Positions 23,802-43,794 are shown, counted from the first letter of the stretch. The stretch: 64,000 nt of DNA from a virus (IMGVR_UViG_3300034061_004620), one strand, 5' to 3'. Translations and numbers: made by a program. Notes: generated by a model not told the origin, from the sequence alone.

Positions 23802-23809
23802 ATAAATTT

Positions 23810-24709
23810 ATGCCTAATATAGACCGTGTTCTCAATTTAATAGATCAGTGCGACTTTTCTGCAGATAATCCTTTTGAGCTTCGTGAAAATTTATTTCCTG
23901 TTCTCGGCGAAATAGCTTCTCCCACAATCGTAAAACTATTCGAAAAAACTTGTTATAACGGTTGGCTTGTTTTTGGGTTCGAAGCTGAAAATGCTGTAGT
24001 ACTACGGTACGACAATATTTTATCAAAATTCAATGACGGATCATTAGATGTATATTTTGGACACTTGTCAGAATCTGAACGTAATCAAATAAAATCAAAG
24101 TTCAAAGAAGTTATAGACGATGAAGTAAAACACAGTGAAATGTTTAGTGCCATTATTGGCAAGATGAAAGCTATCAAAGACTATAGACCAGAATTTGTCT
24201 CACCTACTTGTTTGGAATTTATACAATCAGAAAACGATCTTTGGCACACAAATAGTTTTATTGAACTATTACCAAACATTGTAACTGGCGAAAGCTATTT
24301 GTATGCGGCATTTGTTTTGTTTTCTAAGTATAGCAAAAATCCTATCAAACAACAAATTTTTAAAGAATTTATTAGAGATGAGTCAAGACATGTAGCGCAC
24401 TTTATGAATATAATGAAAAAAGCTTATATAGATGATGTTGAACAAAAAAGATACGATAGAAAGTTTTTCCAATTTGCCAAAGATAGGTCACAATTTGAAG
24501 ATGCAAAATTTAAAAATTTTTTAGACACGTTATCTATAAGTGCCGAAATAAAAAAAAATATCGTCAATAAAGCTTATACTACAGAATTTCACCAAACTTT
24601 CAGAAAGTTGTATGCTAAGAAAACCTGGCAATTTTACAACATAGTGTTTCCTGACGTTGATCAAGAAACATATGAAAAGATGTTGTATCCAAATTTAATA
24701 AATAGTTAA
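23810..24709 (+). CDS. Ferritin-like di-iron protein
   Basis: Two ExxH motifs (DEVKH, DESRH) with an upstream GESY; AT-rich relative to neighbours. Confidence 0.65.
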   Translation: MPNIDRVLNLIDQCDFSADNPFELRENLFPVLGEIASPTIVKLFEKTCYNGWLVFGFEAENAVVLRYDNILSKFNDGSLDVYFGHLSESERNQIKSKFKEVIDDEVKHSEMFSAIIGKMKAIKDYRPEFVSPTCLEFIQSENDLWHTNSFIELLPNIVTGESYLYAAFVLFSKYSKNPIKQQIFKEFIRDESRHVAHFMNIMKKAYIDDVEQKRYDRKFFQFAKDRSQFEDAKFKNFLDTLSISAEIKKNIVNKAYTTEFHQTFRKLYAKKTWQFYNIVFPDVDQETYEKMLYPNLINS

Positions 24710-25074
24710 TGCGTTCTCATGAATTCGACAACAAACAAACTGCTGTTAGATATTTTAGCCGACGACCTGAAGTGGTTGGTAAAGTGGATGCAGGCGACTA
24801 CACTTTTTTCTTAGACGAACACCTATTAGACCAAGCCCAAGACCGGCGAGTAGATGATTTTGTGCTTACCAAAGTAATACCAAAAATACCACAAGCCAAA
24901 GCCAAAATACGTCAACTGGGCGCAGGCCAGCATTTTTGGCTTTACGATAATACCAATCAAATTGCACTTGGCGTGCAAATATGGCACACAGATTACAAAA
25001 TTTTTATTATAAGAACCGTATGGAATGGCATGCCCTCAAGCGATGCTAATTATCCAATCTTTAATGTTGCATAA
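24709..25074 (+). CDS. Hypothetical protein
   Basis: MRSHEF start, preceded by an ATAAATA box. Confidence 0.6.
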   Translation: MRSHEFDNKQTAVRYFSRRPEVVGKVDAGDYTFFLDEHLLDQAQDRRVDDFVLTKVIPKIPQAKAKIRQLGAGQHFWLYDNTNQIALGVQIWHTDYKIFIIRTVWNGMPSSDANYPIFNVA

Positions 25075-25137
25075 AAACAACAATTGACTTAAATTCGCCC
25101 GTTTGCTATACTCTTATTACTGTAACTAATTAGGAGT
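25065..25137 (+). promoter_or_regulatory. Early sigma70 promoter with upstream inverted-repeat box
   Basis: TTGACT (25084) -17- TATACT (25107); TGTTGC-N6-ACAACA upstream; AACTAATTAGGAG RBS. Confidence 0.8.
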
Positions 25138-25142
25138 TAGCA

Positions 25143-28100
25143 ATGTCGCAACTTTCAATCCAGGATGTTAATTCAGCAATCATGTTTGGTTCGTTTACAA
25201 ATGAGCAACTGGAAAGCATCACCTGTGCTATCAAGTACCGACGCGGCCAAATTAACCGAGAAACCAAACGTGCCTTGATGCTGGGCGATGTTGTTAAATT
25301 TACACATCCCAAGACTGGGCGCACTCACCGAGGAAATGTTGTTAAAATTAACATAAAAAACATCAAGGTGCGTGAGAATAACACTACCTGGAACGTTCCT
25401 GCTAATATGCTAACTGTTGCTGAATAAGCAACAATGTTGCAAAAAAAGCAACATTTTATTTTGGTAGACCATAAAGACCCATTTTGCTATACTATTGGTA
25501 TAGTAACTAATAAGGAGCGTAATAAATGAGCAAGCTTACCGAATACACTTTTGAAATCTTCAAAGCCGACAAGCGTATCAAAAAAGATGAACGCTATGGT
25601 CGCAACAAGATGGGTCTGCGTTTTGTGGAAGTCAAAGACTTCGCACCACTTACTCGCAGTCATGCAGAAGTATTAGCCGACGGCATCCGTAAAGAAGGCC
25701 TGGTTGTTCATGTGTATGAAACTTTTGTCACCCGCAAGAACATGATGTCGGGCAAAGAGTACCAGGAGCGTTATGACACTCCGTACTACTGCTCGCCCAG
25801 TTCCGAATCTTACTTTAGCATGTAATTGTCAAGGAGACAGCAATGACCAAATTTGAAAAACAAGTTAGACAATTGGCCCAAGTAGTGGGCGACCCTGAGG
25901 GCAAGTTAGAAGAAACTGTAGATTACATTGCCTGTGAAATGCAGGTATCGCTGAGTGACGTGCGTCGAGTATTCAAGGAGAAATAAAATGGAAATTTCTT
26001 GTGCGAATGTTCCTGGTGGTTGGCAGACCGTAGTATATACTGCCGATGGCGGAGAATACTCGTTTGGTCCTGTATACAATCGTGTAACGGACTTATGGAC
26101 CTGGCAGCGGGCTAACTTGTTTGATGTAGCCCAGGGTTATCGTTTAATGAAGGAGGCAGCGTGATGATAGATTCCACTCTAATTGCTGAAAAATTTACTC
26201 GCCACGGTGGTGCATTTGATCGTGGCAGCGCCGATAGCTATTATGGCCGCGGTCCTCGCCCGCATTACTTTGTGGGTGGTACATATCAAAGTGCCGAGAT
26301 TGTGGCTGAAGAAGGTACCCCCGAATATGAAGCTTATATGATGGGATACGAATACAATGAGACGCATGGCGACAAGAAGGATTGGGGTTAATTATGCCTA
26401 AACAATTTTTACGAAATATAATTGACGCTATTCCTACACCCACTCCTGAACAAGGAGATTGTGCAGTCAATTTGATGTTGGCTTTTGTGTCAGGGTTTAT
26501 TTTTGCTATATTGGTATTTGGACATTAATTGTAAAGGAAACTGACATGGATTTTACTCAAGACCAAATCAACGATATTGTACGTGAAGCAAGAGATGCTG
26601 CCTATGCGGCTTCGGATGAATTCTTCCGTGTGAAATTGGGCGGTGTGGATCAGTATGCGTGTGGCTTTGCTTGGACCAATATTTACAAGGTCAAAGGCAA
26701 TAGCAAATTGGGACGTATGCTGAAGGCAGCTGGCATTCGTCAAGACTACAACCGCACATTCCAACTTTGGAATCCAGCCGGTTATCCGGTGCAGAACATT
26801 GACACCTTGGAAACCGGTGCCAGGGCTGCGGCTGATGTGTTTCGTAAATACGGCTTCGATGCATACGCAGGGTCAAGGTTGGATTGATGTCTGAACTGAT
26901 TCAACAGTTAGCAGATCAAGCACGAGCAGAGGTGCCCAAAGGCATCCTTGCTCCGGATCTCTGGATTGAGCAGTATAATCTAATTTTAGGTAGACTAATA
27001 ATAGACGAATGCGTTAAAGTTATGCATGAGCAAGAAAGAATTCCAGCAGGATTCTTGTATGCCAAAAGTGCAGAAACGCACAAGTTAGCGATACAACAAC
27101 ATTTTGGAGTTGATGAATGATTTATGCTTTGATTTTGATTACAGCCGCCGGTGTACCTCAGCCACCTGTTGGGTTCTATCCAAGCAAGACTGAGTGTCAA
27201 GAAACAGCCAAAGAACTTGCTACCAAAGAATACCGGGCAGTCTGTGTTAGGCAGCAGTCGCAAGAAGAAAGTATGGCTCAAGCACAGAACATGATGAAAA
27301 GTTTTATGCAGCTGATTCCGGCTCAAAAATAACAGGAGGCCATATGGGTTATACTGTGTTAGGTGAACGCGATGCACGTTGGCAACCACGCAAGGGTTTG
27401 GAAGGTCCTTTCTTTTATGCCAATGGTCGTGTGCTGTACTATGATCCCAAAGAAGGTCAATACTATGACCCTTTAACAGACTATTATGTGGAGCAGGATG
27501 AGATCAACGAACTCCACGCTCACCTTGCCAGGATGCTGTCACGATAATGACTGCCTTTTATATTTTATTTCTCGCGTTCCATTTCTTTATGAGTGGCATG
27601 CTGACCAGTGCTATACTTACAAATCGTGCGGAACACAAACCTAACCCGTTGCGATTGTATGTGGTTGCTGTATTGTGTTTTTTGTTTGGACTTTACTTTA
27701 CAATAGCATTGATAGGATATAGCTCACTGTGAATAAGCGATATTATAATAATGATAGCACCGTTATCTCTCGTTTGGCTGACCAGGCTCATGAAACAAGT
27801 TGCTTGATTTATGACGAAAGACTTAAAAAAGAACGAGCTGATGCGGTTATCTTTTATGATATTTTCAATCAAAAGTTCGCCGAGTTGATTGTTAAAGAAT
27901 GTTTGGAATGGTGTGATGCTCATGCTACGATTAATGGAACGGCACAGCAGATCCGTGATTCTATAAAGAACCATTTTGGAGTTGAATCATAGACATTTGG
28001 ATTTTAGTTTTAATTACCGCTATTGCACCAAATAAGATATTGTATGATCCTTATTTGGAAACTGTCAGCGAACAGGCGTGTCTCAAGCAAGCAGAATTCG

Positions 28101-28149
28101 TTAGACAAAGACAACCCGAAGCTCGAACTTTTTGTGTAAAGAAACGATA
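25143..28149 (+). other. Run of about 13 short early hypothetical ORFs
   Basis: ORFs at 25143, 25526, 25843, 25988, 26161, 26546, 26884, 27117, 27344, 27547 and 27729, mostly with AGGAG RBS or overlapping stops. Confidence 0.7.
25415..25517 (+). promoter_or_regulatory. Early promoter module with two TGTTGC-N7-GCAACA boxes
   Basis: Boxes at 25415-25433 and 25435-25453; TAGACC (25465) -17- TATACT (25488). Confidence 0.8.
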
Positions 28150-28701
28150 ATGAATATAAAAATAATTGCACTATCTTTTTTACTTGCTGCTTGCTCCTCT
28201 ACCAGCTTGCAAGATACACCGACCAAAGATCCGCCTACGATCGATAACAGAACAAAACAAAACACCAATGGCACCCGTAATACAGATGTAATTGTAAATG
28301 CCAATCCTGAACCTGTTGTTGAAGTTCGTAAAAACAAGATCCCAGATAGGGCGGATCCCAACACCTTATTTCAAGAAAGTTCAATATATTTTGATTTGGA
28401 CGAATACACTGTTAAAGAATCGTTTATACCTTTACTAAAACAACATGCAGAGTTCTTGATAAAAAATCCCAACGAATTTGTATTCATACAAGGACACACT
28501 GACGAACGCGGCGGCACTGAATACAACTTGGCACTGGGACAACGGCGAGCCAATGCAGTCAAAATGGCTTTGTCAAGACTGGGTGTAAGCGATCAACAGA
28601 TGGAAGCATTTTCGTATGGTAGTACCAAACCTCGAGCTGCGGGCAGTACCGAAGAGGCCTGGGCTGAGAATCGTCGTGTGGACTTAGATTACAGGAACTA
28701 A
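28150..28701 (+). CDS. pal: Peptidoglycan-associated lipoprotein (Pal/OmpA C-terminal family)
   Basis: Lipobox LAAC; IYFDLD, IQGHTDERGGTEYNLALGQRRANAVK, AWAENRRVD. Confidence 0.92.
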   Translation: MNIKIIALSFLLAACSSTSLQDTPTKDPPTIDNRTKQNTNGTRNTDVIVNANPEPVVEVRKNKIPDRADPNTLFQESSIYFDLDEYTVKESFIPLLKQHAEFLIKNPNEFVFIQGHTDERGGTEYNLALGQRRANAVKMALSRLGVSDQQMEAFSYGSTKPRAAGSTEEAWAENRRVDLDYRN

Positions 28702-28961
28702 ATTATGACAGACCCTTTCAAAGACATAGCCGATCAAGCGCACTTCAACATCTACCACAGCAACTTGTGGAATGGTACGGGTCGTAGATTTGCTGAAATG
28801 ATTGTGGAACGATGCGCCAGCATGTGTGGCAGTCAGGCCGACCGCAAAAATCTTCGCCAGGCATTTGGTCTGCCTGTGGAGAGTGATGTCAAGTACCCAG
28901 GTCCTGATGCACATTGGAGTATTACGTCGCAGTATGACAGAGACTACAACTTACCCAAGTA

Positions 28962-29363
28962 ATGCTACCAGAAAAATACAAAGAAGATCTCGTAGGTGCC
29001 GGCATTGGTTTTATGCAGACCATTGCCGAAATCTATGGCGCCGATAAAGGAATGGAACTTTGGATCACAATAGCCGACACCATCGATCCCGAGCTTAAAG
29101 GTGCTGTGTTCATGGCCATGTTGACCGGCAACTATCGCAGAGACAAGATACATGTGAAGAATCCGTTTGTGAGCAAGATAGGAGACAAAATTGCTGTAAT
29201 CAAGTGCATTCGTACCTACGATCGAAGACGACTCGGACTCAAAGAAGCCAAAGATATTGCGGATAGATTGGATATGGCTGGTTCTGAAATCCTGGAAGTT
29301 GATCCTAATATTAGACCTACTTTTGCTGTAGAATTACGCAAGTTAGGGCTGGTTGCTAATTAA
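28962..29363 (+). CDS. Protein with a ribosomal protein L7/L12 C-terminal-like domain
   Basis: KIAVIKCIRTY...LGLKEAKDIAD matches the L7/L12 CTD signature; the N-terminus is unrelated to L12. Confidence 0.7.
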   Translation: MLPEKYKEDLVGAGIGFMQTIAEIYGADKGMELWITIADTIDPELKGAVFMAMLTGNYRRDKIHVKNPFVSKIGDKIAVIKCIRTYDRRRLGLKEAKDIADRLDMAGSEILEVDPNIRPTFAVELRKLGLVAN

Positions 29364-29453
29364 GCAACTTATGTTACTTTTTTGCAACATTTTATTTTGG
29401 TAGACCATAATTCGCCATTTTGCTATAATATTGGTATAGTAATTAATTAGGAG
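29351..29453 (+). promoter_or_regulatory. Early promoter module, 38 nt identical to 47772-47809
   Basis: TATTTTGGTAGACCATAATTCGCCATTTTGCTATAATA at 29393-29430; upstream GTTGC/GCAAC boxes. Confidence 0.85.
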
Positions 29454-29458
29454 AATAA

Positions 29459-31358
29459 ATGGAAAAACACACTTGTCCGGAATGCAATGGCACTACCCGT
29501 AAGCCCTATAATCTAAATCCAAGTTGGAAGCGGGTCATTGCTGGTTATGATGAGGCCACAGACACCTTGCCCTGCACCAATTGCGGTGGGCAGTATATGT
29601 TCGGTCGTCCTACGGGTCAAGTCCAGCTGAACAAAGAAGGTCAACCTTGTACGCACGTCTACAAGGGTCGTAACGCAGGCCGCTGTGTAACTGAATACAC
29701 CTGCGAACATTGTAGTGACAGATATCAAATTGACTCAGGAGATTAATATGGGATATTTTAAAGATTTGGAAATTGAAATTCGTGAAATGGATTTCAAAGG
29801 CTACACACCGCAACGGATTGCTGATGCTGTGGGTTTGAGTGTGGCTCAGATTGTTGAGCTGCTCGAAAGCGACTTTGACGAGGATCCACAGGAGTATGCG
29901 GAGCAGGCAGCAGATCTTGATGCTAATTTTTATGGGAATATACAATGACGAAAGAAGATTACGAAAAGGCTATAGCAGAGTTTCTTGCTAATGGTGGCGA
30001 AATCCAACAAATTCCTACAGGCAAAAGCTCCCCAGATGCGGGTGCAAGTGCATGGGGTCGTCCCCAAGCCAAACCCAAAGACATCACTGACATTAACGTG
30101 GACGAATTATGAACCGACTCGAAATACTTGCCAATGAATTAGCTTTGCTGAGCAACCAAAGCATGATGGAACTTGCCCAGATCTTGGTTGCAGATTACCC
30201 AACAAGAGCTGATGTACTTGAAACTCAATTAGGCGCAGCATTTTTTTACAATGACAAGGAGACTGTGAATGAGTAATTTTCTGATTTCAATTGACTACGA
30301 TCCGGTTTCGGGTGGATACATGGCATCTTATTTTAATGGCCAAACCGTCATGTTGGGTGCTACCACATATCAAGACGCTGTACTCGAAGCCGATATGTTG
30401 GAACCTGAAAACTTTGAAGTAGGCTATAACTAATGCAGGCGCAACCGGTTACCGGAGATCTTGGTCCGAAGCAGTTCGAAGCTGTAAACGGACCGATTGA
30501 CTCAAATGAACCAGAAATGCTAACATTTGAATGTAAAGGATGTGGGCAACGGTTTCCGGATACTGGATTGTATTTTTATGGTGTCAGTTCTGTTCGTTGC
30601 ACATGGTGCAGTAAATTTCCAAAGGTAAAAAATGAACGAAAAATCACAACAACTGAATGACGCTGTAGTACAATTGCATGATATTGCTCGCTTGATTGAA
30701 CAGAGCATTGGCTCCGGACAATTAAGCATGGACATTCGATCCGCTGCGGATCGTCTTAACGTGTTAATTAATCCAGTTAAACCGGAGAGTACAAGATGAG
30801 AACCTTTGTTTACGGAACCATTTTTGGTATCGTTGTAGCAACAATTGGCTTCACGGGCATTGCTCGTATGCTGGACAAGGCTGTGGTCAAAACCAAAGAG
30901 ACTGCAACTGAACTGAGTAAATGATTTTGGTTAAATTGCCGACCAAAAACAGGTTGACCTGTAATTCGAATGGCAATATAATAGTGGTATGGTTACAAAC
31001 AGTAATCTAAATTTTCAACTTTACTTGTGGAGAGTAACAAATGACTGACAAAACTTTTATGGTAGGTGGTGTTTCTAAAACTAAAGGCCAATACAAGGTT
31101 CGCTTTGCTGGCGACATGACCCGTGTCAAGATTCTTGCCAAGACTGACACTGACATCAACTTGGTTGAGTTGCCACGTGCAATGACCAAGGGTGAGCTTG
31201 TAACACATCTTAAAACTACGGATCTGTACAAGAATCCTGAGTTTGCTGCTGCAATTGATGCAGCCGATACCAAGTACAATGCTGCTGGCACTGTCAAGGT
31301 TAAAGGTGCCAAGCCAAGTATGGAGGCTATCAAAGCTCGTACCAAACAGCCAGCCTGA
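29459..31358 (+). other. Run of short early hypothetical ORFs, including a Cys-rich zinc-binding ORF (29459..29746) and 31041..31358
   Basis: CxxC pairs; RBS-preceded ORFs; promoter TTGACC (30954) -17- TATAAT (30977). Confidence 0.65.
29945..30112 (+). CDS. Small SutA-like (RNA-polymerase-binding motif) protein
   Basis: Not in the ORF track. MTKEDYEKAIAEFLANGGEIQQIP resembles the SutA 'A.FLA.GG.VQ' helix. Confidence 0.5.
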   Translation: MTKEDYEKAIAEFLANGGEIQQIPTGKSSPDAGASAWGRPQAKPKDITDINVDEL

Positions 31359-31375
31359 GCAATTTAAATGTAACA

Positions 31376-31400
31376 CAGCCCGCTTCGGCGGGCTTTTTTA
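31376..31400 (+). terminator. Intrinsic terminator
   Basis: AGCCCGC-TTCG-GCGGGCT followed by TTTTT. Confidence 0.9.
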
Positions 31401-31561
31401 CTAAATAGGATATGGACGAGATAAACCGTTTATATTTTATTGTTGGCTTCTTGTTGGGCGTTTTACTTATTGGCAGTTTATCAATTGCATTTGGTTTGAT
31501 TTATTATGAATGGATCAAACCAAATAAAGACGACGAATAAATTCCAAATTGTTTTCATACT

Positions 31562-32170
31562 ATGATCAAACTTACAGCTAAAAATTTCAAAGGTGTAGTA
31601 CATCGCGCACGTCGCGAATGGCCTAAATATTCAACTCAGCTGCTGAATGTGGCTGGGCAAAATTGCAAAGCGTTTGATGTAAGGCAGGTAGGATCTGCAA
31701 AAGAAACTTGGTTAGAGATGCGGCAACAAGGCATACCTGGCACCTTTGAAAATTGGTGTAACTTTTATAACTCTAAACCTTTTGCCAACAATATTCCGGC
31801 ACAGGCACAGAGATTGTACGAAATGATTCAAAAGATGCAAATTGGTGGCATTTCGTATGACATGTGTGAAGACTATATTAAAGAAGTAATATACAATAAA
31901 ACACACATGGGCATGGCCGGCGAAGAAATGGCCATTCAAGCAGTGGGTTCGTACTATTCTTTACCGGTTAGATTTTCCGATGCCCAAGAAGAAGCACAAG
32001 GTATTGATGGTTGGATCGGAGAGATTCCGGTACAGGTCAAACCCGAAGGCTCGGCATTCAAAGGACACGTACACAATCATCCAGATAAAGATCGAGTTCT
32101 GCTGGTCACTTACATACCAAAAAAACAAGTATGTTACATTCATAATCCACAATTTGTGGTAAGTAAATAA
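31562..32170 (+). CDS. MjaI-family restriction endonuclease (PD-(D/E)xK fold)
   Basis: WPKYSTQLLNVAGQN...VGS, FENWCNFY, NKTHMGMAGEE, EEAQGIDGWIGEIPVQVKP. No adjacent methyltransferase. Confidence 0.8.
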   Translation: MIKLTAKNFKGVVHRARREWPKYSTQLLNVAGQNCKAFDVRQVGSAKETWLEMRQQGIPGTFENWCNFYNSKPFANNIPAQAQRLYEMIQKMQIGGISYDMCEDYIKEVIYNKTHMGMAGEEMAIQAVGSYYSLPVRFSDAQEEAQGIDGWIGEIPVQVKPEGSAFKGHVHNHPDKDRVLLVTYIPKKQVCYIHNPQFVVSK

Positions 32171-32195
32171 CATAGATTAGAATTGTAGTACAATG

Positions 32196-32545
32196 CCTAA
32201 GAAGAAAGATCGGACAAGACCCGGGGGCGGTACCCGGCCGGTCCACCAAAAAGCATTTTGCCCGATGATATAACGAGCCACCACGGTAAGTATGCGAAAG
32301 CTGATAAGAGTGGAATAGGCAGACGAGGTTAGCGATTCCTCGTTGTATCGGAGAGGGACACCTTGAAAATGCTTTTTGATGGGCCGGAAATAGTATCGAT
32401 TGACGAGCAAGTATTCAAAGGATCTACACGGTAGGCGATCTCCGTAAAAGAAGCAAAACTATAACTGCAAACGCAGCTAACGACGAGGTCTTCGCTCTCG
32501 CAGCGTAATCTCCGGGGCAACTATGCCTTGTTACCCAAAATAGTT
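32196..32545 (+). ncRNA. ssrA: Circularly permuted (two-piece) tmRNA
   Basis: The 3' tRNA-like half CCGGG-GGCGGTA-CCCGG-CCGGTCC-A-CCA ends at 32248. The 5' half GGGCCGG starts at 32381 (G3:U70). Tag frame 32467-32508 reads ANAANDEVFALAA* after ATAACT. Confidence 0.92.
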
Positions 32546-32574
32546 TAGGGCATTTTTATGCCCTAATTTTTTTT
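32545..32574 (+). terminator. Intrinsic terminator after tmRNA
   Basis: TTAGGGCAT-tttt-ATGCCCTAA followed by a T7 tract. Confidence 0.85.
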
Positions 32575-32604
32575 GTATAAATATTGCTATTATAGGAGAG
32601 CAAA

Positions 32605-33354
32605 ATGGCTTTTGAATATCACGCACCTTTTCATGTTATCACTATGGAAACTGGAGATACAAAATTAGTTAACGAAATAGACTGGGGAAGATATCGATTA
32701 GAGAACATGGAACTGATACAATACGATTTGGACCTGAGTGAAGCTACCAATGAATTAGCAGAAGATCTAAGATCTGGTAAGGTAGTTGCAACTGAATTAC
32801 GCGAAACTGTTGCCACTTCACAAGGTCAATTGGTGACTATACAAACTGGATTCAAATTTATGTTTCCGGGAGCAACCGAAAAATATATTTTCCATCCTAA
32901 TTTTTTTAAATATGTTGACAAAATGAAAGCAGATCCTAATACAGTTTACAAAGATCCTATCTGGATAGATTGCACCCCTTGACCAAGAGCAATAATGACA
33001 GAATTTCAAAAAATAAATGACACTGATGTCAGCCATAATCACATTAATATTCACGATTGGGCAATTCGCACTTTGGATCAAGATGAATTAGAACAATTTT
33101 TAGAAGCAGAAAATCGCAATTTGGCATTAATGAAGTCATATGTACAACATGGACTAATGACTCAAGAGACTGTGAAAGAAAATGTTTATCTCCCCGAATA
33201 CGGCGAAGAAATAACCATCGAAGTCGGACTACAAACAATTCTCTCGCCGGGTGTTACAATACTTGACGTTCCAATTGATCCAGAATATGGAGCATGGCAT
33301 GCCAGATACACAGCAGATCCAAATATCAATCATAATCCAACAGCTCAAGTATAA
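32605..33354 (+). other. Two possibly paralogous acidic hypothetical proteins (32605..32982, 32995..33354)
   Basis: Similar size, and both end with a ADPN..P motif. Confidence 0.55.
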
Positions 33355-33363
33355 CGGATCTTA

Positions 33364-33392
33364 TTGACCAAAATTCAGCTCTTTGCTATAAT
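33364..33392 (+). promoter_or_regulatory. Early sigma70 promoter
   Basis: TTGACC -17- TATAAT with the same TTTGC extended -10. Confidence 0.8.
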
Positions 33393-33398
33393 AAGAGT

Positions 33399-33806
33399 AT
33401 GAATACACAATTCTCAATTCCTGATCCAGGTTGTCAAATTGCAATTACTTTTGAATTTCCAAGTTATGTAATCGGCGCGGCCGCAGTTAACAAAACAACA
33501 ATAACAGGCATCGTTGAAAAAGCTACCAAGTTCACCCCTCCCGATTTTGTTAGAATCGTAACTGATTTTGACAGTCCTGTACGCATTAGAGAAATTCCTT
33601 TGCATCGCGTTACTAACATTGAGTATGCTGACGGTCGTAGTGCTAATCGCAAAGCAATCGAGCAAGATACAAAAACTTGGAACGTATTTGGTAGTAAAGG
33701 ATCTCGATACACAGTAATTCAAACCAAATCAACTTGGACTTGCACTTGTCCGGGTTTTCAATTTCGTAAATCATGCCGGCATATAAAGGAGTTACAAGAT
33801 GCGTAG
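33399..33806 (+). CDS. SWIM zinc-finger protein
   Basis: GSRYTV...WTCTCPGFQFRKSCRHI (CxC..CxH). Confidence 0.8.
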   Translation: MNTQFSIPDPGCQIAITFEFPSYVIGAAAVNKTTITGIVEKATKFTPPDFVRIVTDFDSPVRIREIPLHRVTNIEYADGRSANRKAIEQDTKTWNVFGSKGSRYTVIQTKSTWTCTCPGFQFRKSCRHIKELQDA

Positions 33807-35115
33807 ACCATGGGAAATAATACAAGAATTAGAAGCAGACAACAGTCGTTTGGTCAAAGAATCCATAGTTGCAGGTATTGCAGCACAAGGTAATGACGAA
33901 TTCTTCGAAGGCTGTAGACTGGCTTTGGATCCATTGATTACATTTGGCCTAAAACAGGTGCCAGAAAAGAAGGACATGTCGGGAGATGGCTTAGGTCGTG
34001 AACTGTTTCTCGAACTGTGTACACAACTAAGTAGTAGGATAGTAACTGGCAACAATGCCAGAGATTTGGTGCAACGAGCTATGGCTATGGCCACACCCAA
34101 TGAATGGAATTCATGGTGCCGTCGTATTCTTATTAAAGACCTACGTTGTGGTGTAAGTGAAAAAACAATTAACAAAGTAGTGGAGAAAAAATATGCAGAT
34201 TACATTATACCTACTTTCAGTTGCCAGCTTGCTCACGATAGTGCTAATCATGAAGGAAAGTTGGCAGGACAAAAACTTGTTGAAGTCAAGTTGGATGGTG
34301 TGCGTGTTATTACTATTGTGTGGCCAGACGGTCGTGTTCTTCAATTTAGCCGGAATGGCAAAGAGCTTGTAAACTTTGAACATGTGAAAGAGCAACTGGC
34401 CGCGGTAGCACCAGGATTTAATGAGCCTATGGTGCTGGATGGTGAGATTATGTCGAGCAGTTTTCAAGACTTGATGAAGCAAGTGCATCGTAAAGACAAT
34501 GTGGCAGCAGGTGATGCTGTACTTAACTTGTTTGACTATATTACATTAGCTGAGTTTAATGCAGGTGGTACAGGATCAGCCCGGCAAGAACATCGTAGTG
34601 CCATGTTGCAAGAATGGTATGCTACTGTACAAGATGCACTACCCAATGTCACAGTGTTGAGCCATGAAGCAATTGACATGGATACCGATGCAGGACAAAA
34701 ACGATTTCGCGAAATCAATCAGCAGGCCATTACAGGCGGTTATGAAGGCATCATGATCAAAGATCCTGATGCTGCCTACGAATGTAAACGTAGTGTATCT
34801 TGGCTCAAGCTCAAACCGTTTATCGAAGTCAGCCTCAATGTAGTTGATTTTGAAGAAGGCACCGGTCGCAATACAGGCAGGCTGGGTGCTATTATATGTG
34901 AAGGTGAGGACGATGGTCGTAGAATACGTGTTAATGTGGGTTCTGGTTTTAGTGATGCCAATCGCGTTGACTATTGGGTGGATAGGTCGACGATTGTCGG
35001 TCACGTGGCAGAAGTACGTGCCGACGCTGTTACTCAAAATCAAGACGGCACTTACTCGTTACGGTTTCCACGTTTCTTACGGTTTAGAGGATTTACAGCG
35101 GGCGAAAAAATCTAA
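33799..35115 (+). CDS. ATP-dependent DNA ligase
   Basis: EVKLDGVR (KxDG), VLDGEI, GYEGIMIK, WLKLK, and an OB-fold VNVGSGFSD...SLRFPRF. Confidence 0.95.
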   Translation: MRRPWEIIQELEADNSRLVKESIVAGIAAQGNDEFFEGCRLALDPLITFGLKQVPEKKDMSGDGLGRELFLELCTQLSSRIVTGNNARDLVQRAMAMATPNEWNSWCRRILIKDLRCGVSEKTINKVVEKKYADYIIPTFSCQLAHDSANHEGKLAGQKLVEVKLDGVRVITIVWPDGRVLQFSRNGKELVNFEHVKEQLAAVAPGFNEPMVLDGEIMSSSFQDLMKQVHRKDNVAAGDAVLNLFDYITLAEFNAGGTGSARQEHRSAMLQEWYATVQDALPNVTVLSHEAIDMDTDAGQKRFREINQQAITGGYEGIMIKDPDAAYECKRSVSWLKLKPFIEVSLNVVDFEEGTGRNTGRLGAIICEGEDDGRRIRVNVGSGFSDANRVDYWVDRSTIVGHVAEVRADAVTQNQDGTYSLRFPRFLRFRGFTAGEKI

Positions 35116-35125
35116 AGGATTTGTT

Positions 35126-35861
35126 ATGGAAAAGCAGGCAATCAAAGAATTGATGTACGGTGGGGTCAAAGAGATAATGAGTAACAGTCGTTACTATTAT
35201 CGCAGCAGCACGGGCCGACAATTTAGCTCGTTCACCGAACCTGGTAAAATAGCAGTGCAAGAGTTTGTGCATGAAATAGCTGCATATATAACTGATGCAG
35301 AAAATGCCGAACTGGATCAACGTGCCAAAGACATGGTGCTCAAAGAACTGAAAGGAAACCAAAATGGCTAATTGGAAAGTATCAACTTACTATAAAAAAT
35401 CATGCGAAGAACACGAACATTACATCAAAGATGGACAAACTATTGTTCGTAAAACAGGGTATCGTGGTTGTTCATTCTTTGTAGAAACCACGAACGACAA
35501 TCCGCCAGAGTTCGAATTTGATTATGTTCCTGGTGGCGATGGCACCAAAGATAGTATTGACATGTATAACTGCTGCTATAACAACATAGAAAATGTTGAG
35601 CTTGATACTATGTGGGACGGTTGTTGGGAAGATATTGACTTTCCAGAAGATATGTCGGAAGAAGAACAAGAACGCCTTATGGAAGTAATTGAAGAGCATG
35701 GTGTTTACCAAGCACTCGAGGATGAAGAGGGCTGGAGTCAAAACGAAACTGAAGCATGGATCTGGGGTCCAATCTTGATTGAGGATGGCGCAGGTAATCA
35801 AGCGAGAATTATCTGTGCTGACGAAGCAGGTAACGTAATAGATTTCAAAGAGGAGGAGTAA
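35126..35861 (+). other. Two hypothetical ORFs (35126..35371, 35364..35861)
   Basis: Overlapping ORFs with RBS; the second is very acidic. Confidence 0.65.
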
Positions 35862-35963
35862 AAATGGGATATGATTCGAGAGCAGTTCGAGTGAAAAAAG
35901 CAGAAAAAGCTTTAGCACTATTATGCTACAACAAAGAGCGCGAGCGACATCTTATTAGAGAAT

Positions 35964-36356
35964 TTGCCGCAGCAGAAGCAAAAAATACACGGGCCCGCCC
36001 TGCACGTAATCGCGGTGATAAAGATGCCGAATAAACATGACGTAGTGGTTGTGAATGACAAGTTCACAACATGGCCAGACAAAGAAGAACTACTTAAAGT
36101 TTTACGCAAAGGAATTTGTGAAGTAACATTTAACAAAGTCAACGGCGAGCGTCGTGTGATGCCTTGTACACTACGTGAAGACTTACTACCTGCCTCAACA
36201 AAAGAAACTACTTCCGTACCTAAAGATAAACCCAATGACATTATCAGTGTTTGGTGCACAGATGCTAATGCCTGGCGTAGTTTTAAATTGAGAAATTTTA
36301 TTTCTATCGAACCTTTATATGAACACAAAATTGAAAACTTGGACAGTGATACTTGA
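35964..36356 (+). CDS. WYL-like/SH3 beta-barrel phage protein
   Basis: VTFNKVNGERRVMPCTL...VWCTDANAWRSFKL. Confidence 0.7.
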   Translation: MPQQKQKIHGPALHVIAVIKMPNKHDVVVVNDKFTTWPDKEELLKVLRKGICEVTFNKVNGERRVMPCTLREDLLPASTKETTSVPKDKPNDIISVWCTDANAWRSFKLRNFISIEPLYEHKIENLDSDT

Positions 36357-36534
36357 AGAAGATCCCGAAACCGGAGAACTTGTTTTGCCATTTAATGATG
36401 AGATGTTGCAAGAATTGGGATGGAAAGAGGGTGATACTCTGGAATGGTTAGATAACAAAGACGGTTCTTGGAGTTTGGTAAAAAAGAAAACAAAAAAGAA
36501 CAAAAAAGTAGTTGCAAAATCCAAAACAATCTAA
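36319..36534 (+). CDS. AbrB/MazE-like DNA-binding protein
   Basis: GELVLPFNDEMLQELGWKEGDTLEW. Confidence 0.65.
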   Translation: MNTKLKTWTVILEEDPETGELVLPFNDEMLQELGWKEGDTLEWLDNKDGSWSLVKKKTKKNKKVVAKSKTI

Positions 36535-36584
36535 TATAATACTTGAATGCTGTCGTACAGCATATCTTTTTTAGGAGATATTTA

Positions 36585-36854
36585 ATGTTTGACCTTAATA
36601 CAAAACAAGGTAAGTTGTTCCGTGCTCTCGTCCTTGACGGTGAGTCGCTAACTGCAAGTCAGATCTCGAAGCGTTTTAGCATCAAGAATCCACGGGCTAC
36701 CATTAGCGAAATTCGTTACGCAGGTTTTCCTGTTTATGCGAATACACGCAAAGCAGGCAACGGCGTTCGTGTTACTGAATACCGTCACGGTAAAGCAAGT
36801 CGCAAAATTGTTGCAGCAGGTTACAAAGCCATTGCAATGGGTATTGTTGACTAA
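36585..36854 (+). CDS. Winged helix-turn-helix protein
   Basis: SLTASQISKRFSIKNPRATISEIRYAGFPVY; followed by a terminator at ~36872-36899. Confidence 0.7.
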   Translation: MFDLNTKQGKLFRALVLDGESLTASQISKRFSIKNPRATISEIRYAGFPVYANTRKAGNGVRVTEYRHGKASRKIVAAGYKAIAMGIVD

Positions 36855-36925
36855 TTGTAGTTTACCAAAATAAAGCTCGCCTATTAGGCGAGCTTTTTTG
36901 TTTCCGAGTTATTTCTAAAAATATT

Positions 36926-37972
36926 ATGAATTTAAGAACTCTTCAAGAAAAATCAGACATATTATATGGTAGACCAATTGCATACTATCTCAAAAAAGCA
37001 AGTGGCAATTATAAGTTTGATATTGATATAGTTAGCAATCAAGACATATTTGGTTCATACTATGTGAAAGCATTAGGATTAGAAACTGTTATAGATATTC
37101 TAAGATCAAGAAATTCAAAATGTATATTGTATGTTGCATGCGATCATGTTTCGGATAACATGCATAGAATAATCGATTACATTCAAGATAATTTACCTGA
37201 TGCCACTATTCTTAGTATTACCGGGGACGGCAGTTACTATGAACTTGCTAATAATACATTGTATTATCCTTATTATTGGTATGCGTTCCTTTCAGGCCCG
37301 CAAAAACATTATGCGGCATGGAAATTAGATACATCAAAATTTGCACAATCAAGGCTATATTCAGCAAGCTGTCTTAATAATCTTTGTAGATATCACAGAA
37401 TTAAACTGTTAGATCAGTTTGTACAAAAACCTTATTTTCAAAATATTCTTTATTCATTTAACGGCACCGCTGCCGATGACCATTACGATTTACCAGAAAT
37501 GCAAACATTGGTTGCAAAGTATCAAAACTTGCTACCATTAAAAATAGATAGAAAAGATGCCAAGTATGGTGATGATATGTTAAGATTAGATCATCCTGGA
37601 TTACATGATTCGTACTTGAATATTGTAACTGCACATCATTATGATATTAGTTTTCTTGATGAAAAAATTTTTAAACCTATTGCCACAGGTCAGATTTTTG
37701 TTACTTTGTCTGGAACTGGTACAATAGATTTATTAAGGAAACTGGGATTTGACGTATTTGATGATATCATAAATCATGATTACGACAATGAACCGGATTT
37801 GAATATGAGAATAGATAAATTAGTTACAAGTATAGATCTCTGGATGCACATGGATCATGAAACTGTTTGGCAGGAAACATATTCAAGAAGAGTAAAGAAC
37901 GCCGAACATTTTTTTAATCTTGATGTTTCTAAAAATCCATTTGATCAGTTTTTAAAACAGTTTGACCAATAA
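36926..37972 (+). CDS. Glycosyltransferase-like protein
   Basis: SCLNNLCRYHR, SYLNIVT, FLDEKIFKPIATGQ, LRKLGFDVFDDIINHDYD; paralog of 11267. Confidence 0.55.
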   Translation: MNLRTLQEKSDILYGRPIAYYLKKASGNYKFDIDIVSNQDIFGSYYVKALGLETVIDILRSRNSKCILYVACDHVSDNMHRIIDYIQDNLPDATILSITGDGSYYELANNTLYYPYYWYAFLSGPQKHYAAWKLDTSKFAQSRLYSASCLNNLCRYHRIKLLDQFVQKPYFQNILYSFNGTAADDHYDLPEMQTLVAKYQNLLPLKIDRKDAKYGDDMLRLDHPGLHDSYLNIVTAHHYDISFLDEKIFKPIATGQIFVTLSGTGTIDLLRKLGFDVFDDIINHDYDNEPDLNMRIDKLVTSIDLWMHMDHETVWQETYSRRVKNAEHFFNLDVSKNPFDQFLKQFDQ

Positions 37973-38111
37973 CTTTGACAGTATTTAATAGACAATTCCT
38001 ATTCTTTCAATTAAAAAATATTCGGCTAAAATCTATTAAAATTACGTTGACAATAGGTATTTACTGGATATATAATATAATGCAATGCAGCATTTTTATA
38101 AGGAGAAATCA

Positions 38112-38645
38112 ATGAAAACAGTAGGAGACAAAATTGAATCGTTCACCGTAACTGGTGTAAACCCAGGAAGTGATCAATTCTTTGCAATTACAGAACAAGC
38201 ATTTGCAGGTAAGTGGAAAGTAATCGTTTACTATCCAAAAGATTTTACATTTGTATGCCCGACAGAAATTGTAGCTTATGATAAACTACACGGTGATTTT
38301 GCTGATCGTGATGCTGTTCTACTCACAGGTAGTACAGACAACGAGTTCTGTAAACTGGCATGGCAGGCAGCGCACGAAGACCTTAAGAAAATTAAACATG
38401 TTCAGTTTGCTGATACCGCACGTGACGAACGTAGCCTAATCAATCAACTGGGAGTATTCTACGCACCCGCAGGTGCTGCACTTCGCGCAACATTCATTGT
38501 TGATCCAGACAACGTTATCCAGCATGTTACTGTCAACAACTTGAATGTTGGTCGTAGCCCAGAAGAAACACTTCGTGTATTAGATGCGTTACAGACTGGC
38601 GAGCTTTGCGCTTGCAACCGCACAGTCGGTGGCGAAACACTTTAA
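38112..38645 (+). CDS. ahpC: Peroxiredoxin AhpC
   Basis: YPKDFTFVCPTE peroxidatic Cys, RATFIVDPD, GELCACN resolving Cys. Confidence 0.95.
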   Translation: MKTVGDKIESFTVTGVNPGSDQFFAITEQAFAGKWKVIVYYPKDFTFVCPTEIVAYDKLHGDFADRDAVLLTGSTDNEFCKLAWQAAHEDLKKIKHVQFADTARDERSLINQLGVFYAPAGAALRATFIVDPDNVIQHVTVNNLNVGRSPEETLRVLDALQTGELCACNRTVGGETL

Positions 38646-38658
38646 TAGGAGATAGCAA

Positions 38659-39063
38659 ATGCTTGAATGTTTAATTGTAGGAGATAGTATTGCTGTTGGC
38701 GTTAGTCAAGTTCGTCCTGAGTGTCAAGCCATTGCGAAAAGCGGTATTAACTCCAGCGACTGGAACAAAAAGCATTTGCACAAGCTGAAGCCAACCCGGA
38801 CACTGATTATCAGTTTGGGTGCAAATGACCTCGGTATCAACACCGAAGGACAGGTAAGATCATTACGCACCAATGCCCAAGCTGATAGAGTGTTTTGGTT
38901 GTTACCCAGTCAATATCTAAAACCAAAACAAGTTGAAGCAGTTCGGCAAGTGGCATCAGAATTTGGTGATACCGTGATTCCAAGACCCGAAACTAACATA
39001 AGTAGAGATGGCGTGCATCCTACCTACAAGGGTTATAAAATATTAGCGGATCAAACAAGATGA
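38659..39063 (+). CDS. SGNH/GDSL hydrolase
   Basis: GDSIA, SLGAND, DGVHP. Confidence 0.85.
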   Translation: MLECLIVGDSIAVGVSQVRPECQAIAKSGINSSDWNKKHLHKLKPTRTLIISLGANDLGINTEGQVRSLRTNAQADRVFWLLPSQYLKPKQVEAVRQVASEFGDTVIPRPETNISRDGVHPTYKGYKILADQTR

Positions 39064-39192
39064 GTAAAGGATCAAATCCTCGACCGTATAGTGTTGATCA
39101 AAAGACTTTTGATTCAAATTGGGACGCTATCTTTAAGAAGAAAGAAGAACAGGTGATAGATAACAAAGAGCAAAAAGAAAAGGAAAAGGAAA

Positions 39193-39705
39193 ATGAGTTG
39201 GGTTGAACAAATTAAAGAAGGATTGCCAGAATATGCTAAGGACACAAAACTTAATCTTGATAATGTTATCAATAGGTCTACACTTGATTTTACTGAAGCT
39301 AATTGCATCGCTTTAGCAGCCGCTATGGCTACTGGTAATGGCAAGTTGGTATCATTTATTCAAAACAATATTCAAGATACTAAAGAACGTGATGCAGCAC
39401 TGACAGCAGCAAGCTTGATGGGCATGAATAATGTTTGGTATCCGTATATAGAAATGGCAGATGATCCTAACTTAAAGGGATTGCCAGCACAACTACGTAT
39501 GAATGCCATAAGTACTCATGGTGGTACAACCAAAGAACGATTTGAAGCATACAGCCTTGCAGCAAGTATTGTTGGTAAATGTCATTTTTGTGTCAAATCA
39601 CATTATGACAATTTGAAGAAAATGGGTTATACTGTGGAACAATTGAGAGACATTGGTCGAATTGCTGCTGTAATAACGTCGGTGGCCAAGGTACTTAATA
39701 GTTAA
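39193..39705 (+). CDS. ahpD: Alkyl hydroperoxide reductase AhpD
   Basis: YAKDTKLNL, MGMNNVWY, SIVGKCHFCVKSH (CxxC). Confidence 0.93.
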   Translation: MSWVEQIKEGLPEYAKDTKLNLDNVINRSTLDFTEANCIALAAAMATGNGKLVSFIQNNIQDTKERDAALTAASLMGMNNVWYPYIEMADDPNLKGLPAQLRMNAISTHGGTTKERFEAYSLAASIVGKCHFCVKSHYDNLKKMGYTVEQLRDIGRIAAVITSVAKVLNS

Positions 39706-39807
39706 TTCAATACCCAAAAGGGTCTTTTTACGTCAAGAAAAGATCATGGCTCAAAATAAATTAGGACAAATGAAATTAGATACATAAATTAAGTTCAAGG
39801 ACACAAA

Positions 39808-40011
39808 ATGACAGAAACAAAAACTCGAAGCGTAGTGAAAACTATTATATGGCGAATAATATGTATTTTGGTATTAGCCTATTGGACCGGACTTGGAGGA
39901 TCATTATTGATTAATGCACTCTTTATGACTTTGTATTATATACACGAAAGAATTTGGTTAAGAATCAATTGGGGAAAAGATTTCGCGCAGGAAAAAGAAA
40001 ACGTAGCCTAA
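39808..40011 (+). CDS. DUF2061-like small membrane protein
   Basis: ETKTRSVVKTIIWR...LYYIHERIWLRINWG. Confidence 0.7.
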   Translation: MTETKTRSVVKTIIWRIICILVLAYWTGLGGSLLINALFMTLYYIHERIWLRINWGKDFAQEKENVA

Positions 40012-40124
40012 GCAAAATCATTAGACAAAAAACATGATTGTACGTATATAAATGTACTGCACAACTGTGTAAAATAATGATACATACTAATGCAGTATGT
40101 TAATTTTAATCAAGGAGAAATAAC

Positions 40125-40199
40125 ATGGCATGGACCACACCAGCAGCACAAGATATGCGTTTTGGTTTTGAAATCACAATGTATATCGCAAATCGATAA
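40125..40199 (+). CDS. pqqA: PQQ precursor peptide PqqA
   Basis: Not in the ORF track. MAWTTPAAQDMRFGFEITMYIANR with the ExxxY motif; strong RBS AAGGAG; own terminator. Confidence 0.93.
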   Translation: MAWTTPAAQDMRFGFEITMYIANR

Positions 40200-40205
40200 A
40201 CAAAA

Positions 40206-40234
40206 CAAGCCCTTTAACAAAAGGGCTTTTTTAT
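40206..40234 (+). terminator. Intrinsic terminator after pqqA
   Basis: AAGCCCTTT-aac-AAAGGGCTT followed by TTTT. Confidence 0.85.
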
Positions 40235-40353
40235 TGAATTTTGAACATAGACATAAATAAATATAGTTGACAATCAACTAAATCACTTGTAAAATCATAC
40301 AAACCTTACAAGGTTTTCTAAAAAATTTTTCACATTATCACATAGGAGAAACC

Positions 40354-41601: not shown

Positions 41602-41656
41602 TACAAAGGGGGCAACCCCTTTGTTCAACATCCTACACACCACTTGAATATATAAA

Positions 41657-42151: not shown

Positions 42152-42162
42152 TAGAGTGCGCC

Positions 42163-43377: not shown

Positions 43378-43403
43378 ATTTAATCATTTTATTCAAGCAA
43401 TGA

Positions 43404-43432
43404 TTGACAACAATGATAAATAAATATACAAT
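43404..43432 (+). promoter_or_regulatory. Consensus sigma70 promoter driving the leader/tRNA operon
   Basis: TTGACA (43404) -17 nt- TACAAT (43427). Confidence 0.85.
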
Positions 43433-43439
43433 AGAGACT

Positions 43440-43559
43440 ATGATGAACTCAACACTATTACATAAATCGTTTAAATCACAACCCGAATCAGGCCTAATAG
43501 CCTATTGGGTGATTACACGCGATATTAGTAATCGTGCCCTGGGGAAATATAGAACCTAA
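43440..43559 (+). CDS. Putative attenuator leader peptide (39 aa)
   Basis: MMNSTLLHKSFKSQPESGLIAYWVITRDISNRALGKYRT*; its 3' end overlaps the antiterminator arm. Confidence 0.65.
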   Translation: MMNSTLLHKSFKSQPESGLIAYWVITRDISNRALGKYRT

Positions 43560-43616: not shown

Positions 43617-43628
43617 ATAAAGGAAGAA

Positions 43629-43793: not shown

Positions 43794-43794
43794 A

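Follow-up and report, generated by a model that had tools for sequence, protein, structure and literature searches.

A lone MjaI-family restriction endonuclease gene in jumbo phage DNA devoid of CTAG

The stretch of viral DNA analyzed here (IMGVR_UViG_3300034061_004620; 64,000 nucleotides, in the following referred to as the window) carries a gene for a 202-amino acid protein, which had been placed in the MjaI family of restriction endonucleases by a first-pass annotation made from the sequence alone. The placement is borne out by an HMM search, in which the product of the ORF at 31562-32170 matches the Pfam profile PF09568 (RE_MjaI) with an E-value of 2.4e-23 and a score of 83.2 bits, the cut-off being 22.7; residues 25-185 of the protein are aligned to profile positions 1-156 of 164. 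When 14 genomes were searched with PF09568 as a control, M. jannaschii alone was matched. A match was also obtained to a PHROG without known function, and none to the models of NCBIfam. Public metagenomes contain 85 homologues of about 200 amino acids, which are 28-100% identical and all of which are members of PF09568.

The immediate neighbors of the gene are a 42-amino acid ORF and a permuted tmRNA gene (Table 1), and the earlier statement that it is adjoined by no methyltransferase is, therefore, correct. Since the tmRNA gene lies directly downstream, no methylase follows the endonuclease. On the upstream side, a terminator-like hairpin, recognized as a pattern match only, and the small ORF may set the endonuclease gene apart as a unit of its own. 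In a syntenic relative that lacks the enzyme (L051), the corresponding position, upstream of the tmRNA gene, is occupied by an unrelated ORF of 196 amino acids, for which no Pfam match was obtained; the idea of an empty site in relatives was, therefore, dropped in favor of a replacement, as opposed to a clean insertion.

Table 1: Position of the endonuclease gene and of the features described in the text (nucleotides of the window).
Feature	Position	Strand	Basis
Terminator-like hairpin with T-run, ending the upstream gene 31041-31358	31377..31394	+	consensus scan, pattern match only
42-amino acid ORF, upstream neighbor of the endonuclease	31412-31540		
Lone MjaI-family (PF09568) type II restriction endonuclease gene, 202 amino acids	31562..32170	+	Pfam RE_MjaI, 83.2 bits
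Conserved block, residues 141-161, putative PD-(D/E)XK active site	31982..32044	+	16-sequence alignment
Permuted (two-piece) tmRNA gene, directly downstream	32184..32508	+	Rfam RF04321, 116.9 bits vs gathering score 47
CTAG-free DNA, both strands	1..64000	.	0 observed vs 125-229 expected; only missing 4-mer

The tetranucleotide CTAG does not occur in the window. The first-pass annotation had noticed this on reading through what it took to be several hundred CTA trinucleotides, and it had estimated that base composition would predict about 200 sites. Exact counting gives 711 CTA and 0 CTAG, and the expectation amounts to 229 sites from base composition and to 125.3 sites from a Markov model (CTA 711, TAG 805, TA 4569), so that the count is not near expectation by either measure. 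The Poisson probability of zero CTAG is about e^-125. CTAG is the sole 4-mer missing from the window, and all of the 8 missing 5-mers have CTAG inside; its z-score is -11.2, while the word ranking second in depletion has -5.9. All remaining 4-bp palindromes are present at observed-to-expected ratios (O/E) of 0.70-1.24, and the seven that had been described as common are indeed found 143-283 times each (GATC 283, GGCC 159, CCGG 153, AGCT 190, GTAC 194, TCGA 143, and CATG 258). The few 6-bp palindromes that are absent are CG-rich and compositionally rare; no 4- to 6-mer other than CTAG has been purged from the window. Upon stepwise lengthening of the sequence of the same phage outwards from the window, 101,808 contiguous bases could be joined, which again contain 0 CTAG, while 201 would be expected. 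An artifact of sequencing or assembly was rejected as the cause, because the gene and the CTAG absence recur in independent ENA, JGI, NCBI, and Logan assemblies, and because relatives out of identical samples have normal CTAG numbers.

The carrier is taken to be a member of an uncultured group of freshwater jumbo phages with genomes of about 350 kb. No close relative was found among isolated phages, and megablast of 28-36 kb of the window against a phage collection gave no hit. The endonuclease gene itself is present on metagenome contigs of up to 352 kb, including contigs of 346 kb and 191 kb (NCBI metagenome) and of 238 kb (JGI), and relatives of the ATP-dependent DNA ligase of the window, with 64-76% identity, are located on IMG/VR contigs of up to 356 kb. 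Besides the ligase, the permuted tmRNA, and 28 tRNA genes, the window encodes UvdE, superoxide dismutase, peroxiredoxin, and formamidase.

Concerning the protein, the conserved block consists of three Glu residues, followed by QGIDGW and then by P-VQVKP; E143, D149, and K160 are invariant among the 16 aligned sequences (alignment A1). The acidic/lysine block is also kept in the methylase-linked cellular and viral homologues, the pattern of the putative active site being GID, about 8 residues, and VQVK in the phage clade and GID, about 8 residues, and VSIK in the methylase-linked homologues. The catalytic residues would be located in this block, among E143, D149, and K160. Sequence analyses in the literature have placed MjaI among the PD-(D/E)XK nucleases (PMC2441816, PMC3424549). 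An AlphaFold2 model of the 202-amino acid protein was obtained with a pLDDT of 89.6. Its comparison with the PDB by Foldseek returned nothing at E ≤0.001, and a profile search of PDB sequences gave no match. In structural superposition (VIA-align), the C-terminal domain of residues 119-202 is weakly similar to I-Ssp6803I (Z 6.1, rmsd 3.3, 81 aligned residues) and to tRNA-splicing endonuclease, Hjc, HhaI, VRR-NUC, and Vsr (Z 4-5.3, likewise weak); these matches are consistent with a PD-(D/E)XK fold while staying below the level at which chance is excluded.

That I-Ssp6803I is the best structural match applies at the level of the fold only, and the protein is not classed as a homing endonuclease. 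Homing endonucleases have long targets of at least 14 bp, while the MjaI family is of the restriction-modification (R-M) type and has a 4-bp site. An intron or intein context of the endonuclease gene was not seen among the ORFs of the window. A separate HNH gene is found near the free-standing endonuclease gene.

When two copies of the protein were modeled together, a score of 0.47 was reached, the best of 3 controls having 0.01; among proteins of solved structure, the mark for such models is reached by 20 of 30 that are pairs and by 1 of 23 that are single chains. Contact agreement between the runs was at least 90% and the pLDDT of the partner at least 83, and the modeled interface is symmetric, involving residues 22-34 and 91-96. 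According to these models the endonuclease would probably be a homodimer, which fits a palindromic site, type IIP endonucleases being homodimers that cut palindromes.

Identity of the protein to the methylase-linked members of the family is 27-36%, and the enzymes of the phage clade possess a C-terminal extension of their own, which is rich in His and Cys. Specificity can drift inside a restriction-enzyme family. The statement of the first-pass annotation that MjaI recognizes CTAG agrees with the literature, where CTAG is given as the site of MjaI, MaeI, and MthZI and m4C as the modification made by M.MjaI (PMC11033074). Family membership, taken together with CTAG as the only word removed from the DNA, suggests that the phage enzyme would have the same specificity.

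A protein that has changed its function would have to be considered at this point. It might have lost its activity, act as a nickase or as a DNA-binding regulator, or have acquired a new specificity, the CTAG loss being due to another cause, such as repair bias of the very-short-patch type, avoidance of insertion-sequence targets, or DNA structure. Solitary restriction enzymes of prokaryotes are sometimes inactive without their partner, according to a survey on these enzymes (PMC3488263), CTAG under-representation independent of R-M is common (PMC4687349), and the His/Cys-rich extension could be a sign of altered function. Yet, the acidic/lysine block is invariant down to 28% identity and the length is conserved in the 85 homologues, from which fold and site are judged to be under purifying selection. 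A general CTAG bias would cause partial depletion, as opposed to zero, and should be seen in the relatives as well, whose O/E is about 1.0 (see below). Finally, given that no other 4- to 6-mer has been removed, the phage itself would be cleaved by an active enzyme specific for a different short site. Nor does an inactive or re-purposed protein account for the count staying at zero. Altogether, an altered protein is regarded as very improbable.

The search for a partner methylase was negative. None of the 41 ORFs of at least 140 amino acids in the window matches a methyltransferase family, and tblastn with the methylase of the cyanophage S-CAM3, which is of the cognate type, found nothing in the window. 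Gene calls in the flanks include one methyltransferase-like gene, about 10 kb beyond the window, which is of the FkbM type (PF05050). With no methylase within about 102 kb of the genome of about 350 kb, a complete type II R-M pair is not present there. A cognate methyltransferase elsewhere in the genome, which the first-pass annotation had named among the findings that would refute its reading, was thus not found in the window and its flanks; a distant one, or a non-canonical DNA modification, may be encoded in the other about 250 kb of this phage. In relatives with a lone enzyme, PF01555, PF02086, and PF00145 were not found in the contigs G003-G007 (62-160 kb), nor was PF01555 found in the contigs G001, G002, G015, G016, and G017. 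A 298-amino acid neighbor of the G004 enzyme, which had been considered as a decayed methylase, is a polysaccharide lyase.

If a methylase or a hypermodification encoded in the unread part of the genome protected the DNA, the CTAG loss would be secondary or historical. Candidates for activity on nucleotides or DNA are encoded in the window, namely a 902-amino acid protein with an amidoligase domain, a radical SAM/SPASM protein, and a UDP-glucose dehydrogenase, and the FkbM-type gene might be added to these, albeit PF05050 is not a DNA-methylase family. In this case, however, there would be no force keeping CTAG at zero during the divergence of the enzymes to 41% identity, nor a reason for sites to be removed in the first place; G013, a contig of the same phage group that does have the cognate methylase, keeps its CTAG, and the three DNA-methylase families were not found in the five lone-enzyme relatives named above. 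Protection by modification is, consequently, given hardly any credence.

Further copies of the enzyme were sought by a profile-guided scan, which led to 25 further viral loci; CTAG in these relatives was counted on whole contigs. Viral loci with an enzyme 41-63% identical to that of the window have no methylase homologue and a CTAG count of 0. For the single contigs, 0 CTAG are observed with 325 expected on 160 kb (G003), 304 on 115 kb (G004), 165 on 68 kb (G006), 145 on 62 kb (G007), 127 on 55 kb (G015), 111 on 50 kb (G016), 89 on 42.5 kb (G017), and 77 on 36 kb (G002). The total for lone enzymes, which are 41-100% identical, is 3 CTAG in about 718 kb of non-redundant DNA, with about 1,600 expected. 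All 3 are located within the first 610 bp of contig G001, and this terminal segment is 82-89% identical to the sister contig G016, as compared to about 96% for the remainder; the CTAG-bearing end of G001 is, judging from these identities, a probable chimera or recombinant.

Relatives without the enzyme have CTAG in the expected number. In 80 IMG/VR loci that were anchored on the ligase and have no MjaI homologue, 3110 CTAG are found in 989 kb, the expectation being 2972. G008, a contig of 356 kb that is rated 96% complete and is free of PF09568, has 907 CTAG, with 892 expected. A second set of 80 loci was anchored on an aminotransferase (79-100% identity to that of G008), and 78 of these have a CTAG O/E of 0.74-1.33. 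The two others, L309 and L310, have zero CTAG; they are part of the contigs G005 and G004, respectively, each of which carries the endonuclease elsewhere. PF09568 was not found in 55 large contigs of enzyme-less relatives (34-356 kb), and none of the 158 loci and 55 large contigs without the gene is CTAG-free or clearly depleted. The CTAG O/E of related phages is, thus, distributed bimodally, being either zero or about 1. The caution voiced by the first-pass annotation, that CTAG is under-represented in many prokaryotic genomes anyway, is justified as such (PMC4687349), but a general bias of this kind cannot explain a bimodal distribution among related phages. The test it had proposed, whether CTAG absence tracks with the gene across related phages, comes out in favor of its reading, and no equal depletion is seen in relatives lacking the nuclease. 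Of its four refuting conditions, the three that were checked, two of them fully and that of a methyltransferase in part, do not speak against the reading. Over the contigs compared, lone enzyme and zero CTAG co-occur strictly across a diverged phage clade, while CTAG is normal in the relatives.

The two states are found in close relatives. Every enzyme-bearing contig has many genes in common with G008. G004, with the lone enzyme, and G008, without it, share 80 ORFs, and the subunits of their ribonucleotide reductase (RNR) have 87% and 91% amino acid identity; RNR identity to G008 is 70-72% for G013 and about 40% for the G001 group. In 36 pairs of orthologues from G004 and G008 (73% nucleotide identity), 72 CTAG are present in G008 and 0 in G004, and 40 out of 70 aligned CTAG positions show no difference in the encoded protein. 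In a tree of the aminotransferase, CTAG-free phages are found in three places; G004 and G005 have a group of eight normal loci as their sister (98%), with a path length of 0.11 between them. Well-supported branches require that the state changed at least twice. As such marker trees are based on single genes of mosaic phages, and the relatives are metagenomic fragments, the number of independent transitions is to be taken as uncertain.

A tree of 108 homologues unites the phage enzymes in a single long-stemmed clade (SH-aLRT 100), which comprises 12 lone enzymes and L101, the enzyme of contig G013. L101 is nested among the lone enzymes (SH-aLRT 98). It is the sole member of the clade with a methylase, which is encoded 52 bp downstream, belongs to PF01555 (E 1.6e-42), is of the N4/N6 and M.MjaI type, and contains the motifs TSPPY and DPFMGSGTT; on G013, 76 CTAG are present, where 122 would be expected. 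The cellular homologues come from numerous phyla of bacteria and archaea, and a methylase homologue of the TSPPY type is encoded next to 73 of the 80. In S-CAM3 the endonuclease gene overlaps the methylase gene, and 14 CTAG are found in 40 kb, with 70 expected. Since a methylase adjoins both the cyanophage copies and most cellular ones, the MjaI family is a normal R-M family. From the tree, the phage enzyme clade would be old, as opposed to a set of recent captures from cells. The lone state is special to this clade, where it coincides exactly with total loss of the site. The presence of a methylase does not prevent CTAG depletion, as is evident from the methylase-bearing viral loci L102-L114, which have 0-2 CTAG with 10-24 expected; the firm rule is that without a methylase there are no sites.

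The main rival to the interpretation given below is avoidance imposed by the host: a CTAG-specific restriction system of the host would purge the sites, and the endonuclease of the phage would be a tolerated passenger in a genome that is already site-free, to which it would perhaps contribute nothing. This is a well-known phenomenon, and the halovirus SH1 is without CTAG for that reason (PMC3622292). The CTAG-poor loci L102-L114 would also be in keeping with it. Furthermore, AGCT is strongly depleted in the same group of contigs, and no matching enzyme gene was found: a second lone endonuclease behind this depletion was dropped from consideration for want of a candidate among the Pfam matches listed for G016, where none of the 25 families listed for 55 ORFs is a further restriction-enzyme family. 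The AGCT loss, which is presumably driven by the host, is, however, incomplete (O/E 0.04-0.2), whereas CTAG is at zero. Avoidance imposed by the host would also predict site-free phages without the gene, and there are none among the 158 loci and 55 large contigs. Carriers and non-carriers occur together in the metagenomes 3300009164, 3300027969, and 3300017917, and the phage enzymes constitute one old clade with a long stem. A host-driven purge with a passenger enzyme is, therefore, held to be improbable.

With high probability, the gene codes for a lone endonuclease of the MjaI family, stemming from a CTAG-specific R-M pair, to which the phage is immune owing to its CTAG-free genome and which cuts other DNA. 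This is also the interpretation of the first-pass annotation, self-immunity by loss of the site with no modification needed, which the data support, the comparison of relatives being the decisive evidence. The enzyme would be a PD-(D/E)XK endonuclease whose m4C methyltransferase partner has been lost, and self and non-self would be written in the sequence itself, with no base modification. Any unmodified CTAG in other DNA of the infected cell would be a target. Substrates would be the host chromosome and, above all, co-infecting relatives, each with about 900 CTAG; activity of the enzyme, and cleavage at CTAG in the DNA of the host or of co-infecting phages, are suggested by comparison of sequences. 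A CTAG newly arisen by mutation would be lethal or costly, and continuous self-restriction would hold the count at zero. On the route to this state, a phage-borne R-M pair would be captured, as in G013 and the cyanophages; sites would then be lost gradually, as fast-replicating phage DNA would never be perfectly methylated; eventually, the methylase, by then useless, would be lost. The reverse order, with a host-driven purge first and the capture of the enzyme later, also deserves consideration. It is somewhat favored that, in a freshwater jumbo-phage lineage, the pair was captured, CTAG was purged from at least 300 kb, and the methylase was dropped, leaving an offensive enzyme, with more than one gain or loss of this state in the group.

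Several known systems share single traits with this scenario. The R-M systems of MjaI, MthZI, and MaeI resemble it in the endonuclease family (by HMM), the conserved block, the similar size, and CTAG as the presumed site. They reside in cells and include an m4C partner of the N6_N4_Mtase family, whereas no partner is present here and the carrier is a jumbo phage of the lytic type; the phage enzymes also differ by their separate long-branch clade, their distinct C-terminal extension, and protection by site absence. Closer in setting are the cyanophages S-CAM3, S-SM2, S-RIM32, and S-H9-2 of Synechococcus, which have the endonuclease family in common with the phage of the window, and G013, with which both the phage group and the enzyme clade are shared. 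In these pairs the methylase adjoins the endonuclease and CTAG is retained, neither of which applies to the phage of the window. In phage T4, endonucleases II and IV go along with hydroxymethylcytosine DNA, and in chloroviruses the enzymes of R-M systems go along with viral methylases. These nucleases, too, are virus-encoded, spare viral DNA, and are able to destroy other DNA (for EndoII of T4, see PMC2764454), but T4 and the chloroviruses mark self chemically, while here self would be marked by a missing 4-bp word, with no modifying enzyme.

Site avoidance as such is documented for the haloviruses SH1 and PH1, in which CTAG and GATC are missing (PMC3622292, PMC4687349), and the total loss of CTAG in the small halovirus SH1 is imposed by the host (PMC3622292). 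Halovirus and phage avoidance resemble the present case in that a nuclease selects against a short palindrome, which is lost throughout the genome. Those nucleases are host enzymes, against which avoidance serves as a defense; here, the gene is the phage's own, and avoidance tracks with this gene and not with the phage group. Solitary endonucleases of prokaryotes, which have the type II gene without an adjoining methylase in common with the phage, have been explained by distant methylases, inactivity, and annotation errors in the survey mentioned above (PMC3488263); site loss is not invoked in the passages concerned, and the present case is viral and would have its explanation at the level of the sequence. 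Phage R-M pairs, nucleases with protection by modified bases, host-driven avoidance, and solitary endonucleases are, hence, all known already. A virus-encoded lone type II endonuclease with the virus's own genome cleared of the site is apparently new, as a literature search, whose scope took in few subscription journals, yielded no report on a lone enzyme of the MjaI type that is carried by a phage without CTAG.

According to the usual teaching, restriction enzymes need a partner methylase, and site avoidance is a defense of phages against enzymes of the host. In the phage described here both ideas would be inverted, inasmuch as the virus owns the enzyme and is itself marked by the absence of the site. 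Provided that the enzyme is active, this would amount to a modification-free distinction of self and non-self with a 4-bp cutter, kept over hundreds of kb and over long divergence, and the tolerance of a solitary type II endonuclease would become understandable. It would also be a case of one gene shaping oligonucleotide content, with zero vs about 2.5 CTAG per kb in phages whose RNR is 87-91% identical. The combination of a lone endonuclease and one missing palindrome is a signature that can be searched for, and it suggests a mechanism of competition between related phages that co-occur in lakes.

The slot upstream of the tmRNA gene, which in the window holds the endonuclease ORF, looks like a variable cassette site. 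In L051, the closest syntenic relative devoid of the endonuclease, whose homologue of the 105-aa gene is 87% identical, this place is taken by an ORF of 196 amino acids for which a Pfam match was not found. The permuted tmRNA also occurs in L038, L051, and L101, the last being a clade member whose endonuclease has an adjoining methylase; two of these three relatives (L038 and L101) are additionally scored by beta_tmRNA (RF01850). The window gene reaches 89 bits with alpha_tmRNA in Rfam, the tmRNA type not being decisive for the host. Its tag frame (32467-32508), as read from the sequence, yields ANAANDEVFALAA, followed by a stop.

The C-terminal extension of the endonuclease is peculiar to the phage clade, including the methylase-linked enzyme of L101, and is absent from cellular homologues. 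It contains conserved His and Cys residues, found in a GHVHNH stretch and, further on, in C-Y/F-IHNPEF, and the pLDDT of the structure model is lower in this region (68-73). The extension may constitute a metal site, or an element of specificity or dimerization.

Among the contigs of relatives that encode the endonuclease without a methylase, the sole three CTAG sites seen are located at bases 70, 349, and 610 of G001 (L223). The end segment carrying them is 82-89% identical to the sister contig G016, the remainder being ~96% identical; this end probably arose by chimeric assembly or was acquired recently through recombination with a relative that has CTAG. Besides CTAG, the palindrome AGCT is also strongly, albeit incompletely, depleted in several of these phages, with observed/expected ratios of 0.04-0.08 in the IMG/VR contigs G001, G002, G016, and G017, 0.20 in G003, and 0.22 in G015; loci L091-L093 and L095-L097 are likewise depleted. 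In the window, AGCT is near expectation (190 observed versus 208 expected). Host restriction is one candidate cause of the depletion, the other being a second, unrecognised nuclease; no restriction-enzyme gene to match AGCT was among the matches listed from a Pfam scan of 55 G016 ORFs.

Features of the window, of its flank L343 in the same phage, and of relative L051
Feature	Position	Strand	Remarks
C-terminal extension of endonuclease	32038-32170		residues ~160-202
Permuted (two-piece) tmRNA gene	32184-32508	+	directly 3' of endonuclease; Rfam RF04321, 116.9 bits
196-aa ORF	L051:3748-4338	+	unrelated to endonuclease; between 105-aa gene homologue and tmRNA
Peroxiredoxin (AhpC/TSA)	38085-38645		
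Carboxymuconolactone-decarboxylase-family protein	39193-39705		
Formamidase/acetamidase	40354-41601		303 bits
Fe/Mn superoxide dismutase	57986-58537		
Rubrerythrin-like protein	23810-24709		
UvdE, UV-damage endonuclease	10264-11280		
UDP-glucose/GDP-mannose dehydrogenase	736-1962		
Radical SAM/SPASM protein	5308-6705		
902-aa protein with amidoligase domain	18519-21227		
Free-standing HNH endonuclease gene	58565-59038	+	PF13392, E 6.5e-12
tRNA cluster, 28 genes	44049-52086	+	ARAGORN and Rfam concordant on 27
IF1/eIF-1a-like ORF	57763-57981		precomputed Pfam PF01176
Ribosomal protein S21, HSP20, ClpS genes	L343:3-239, L343:574-1391		flanks, same phage

Six stress and metabolic genes, uncommon for a phage, are present in the window (peroxiredoxin to UvdE in the table). 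The dehydrogenase, the radical SAM/SPASM protein, and the amidoligase-domain protein might be parts of a pathway that modifies nucleotides, sugars, or peptides; weak relatives of the amidoligase-domain protein occur in Agrobacterium phage Atu_ph07 and in Ralstonia phage RsoM2USA. The HNH gene is flanked by the superoxide dismutase gene and the gene for a 1231-aa protein. Nearly all amino acids are represented in the tRNA cluster, with small ORFs in between, and translation and proteostasis genes (IF1/eIF-1a-like, S21, HSP20, ClpS) are found in the window and its flanks.

A hint as to the host comes from contig G016 (L254-L256), which belongs to the lone-enzyme lineage of 61% identity: its genes include those for heme oxygenase, ferredoxin-dependent bilin reductase, and fatty-acid desaturase, along with several for 2OG-Fe(II) oxygenases. 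Since this set is typical of cyanophages, at least the G016 lineage perhaps infects cyanobacteria.
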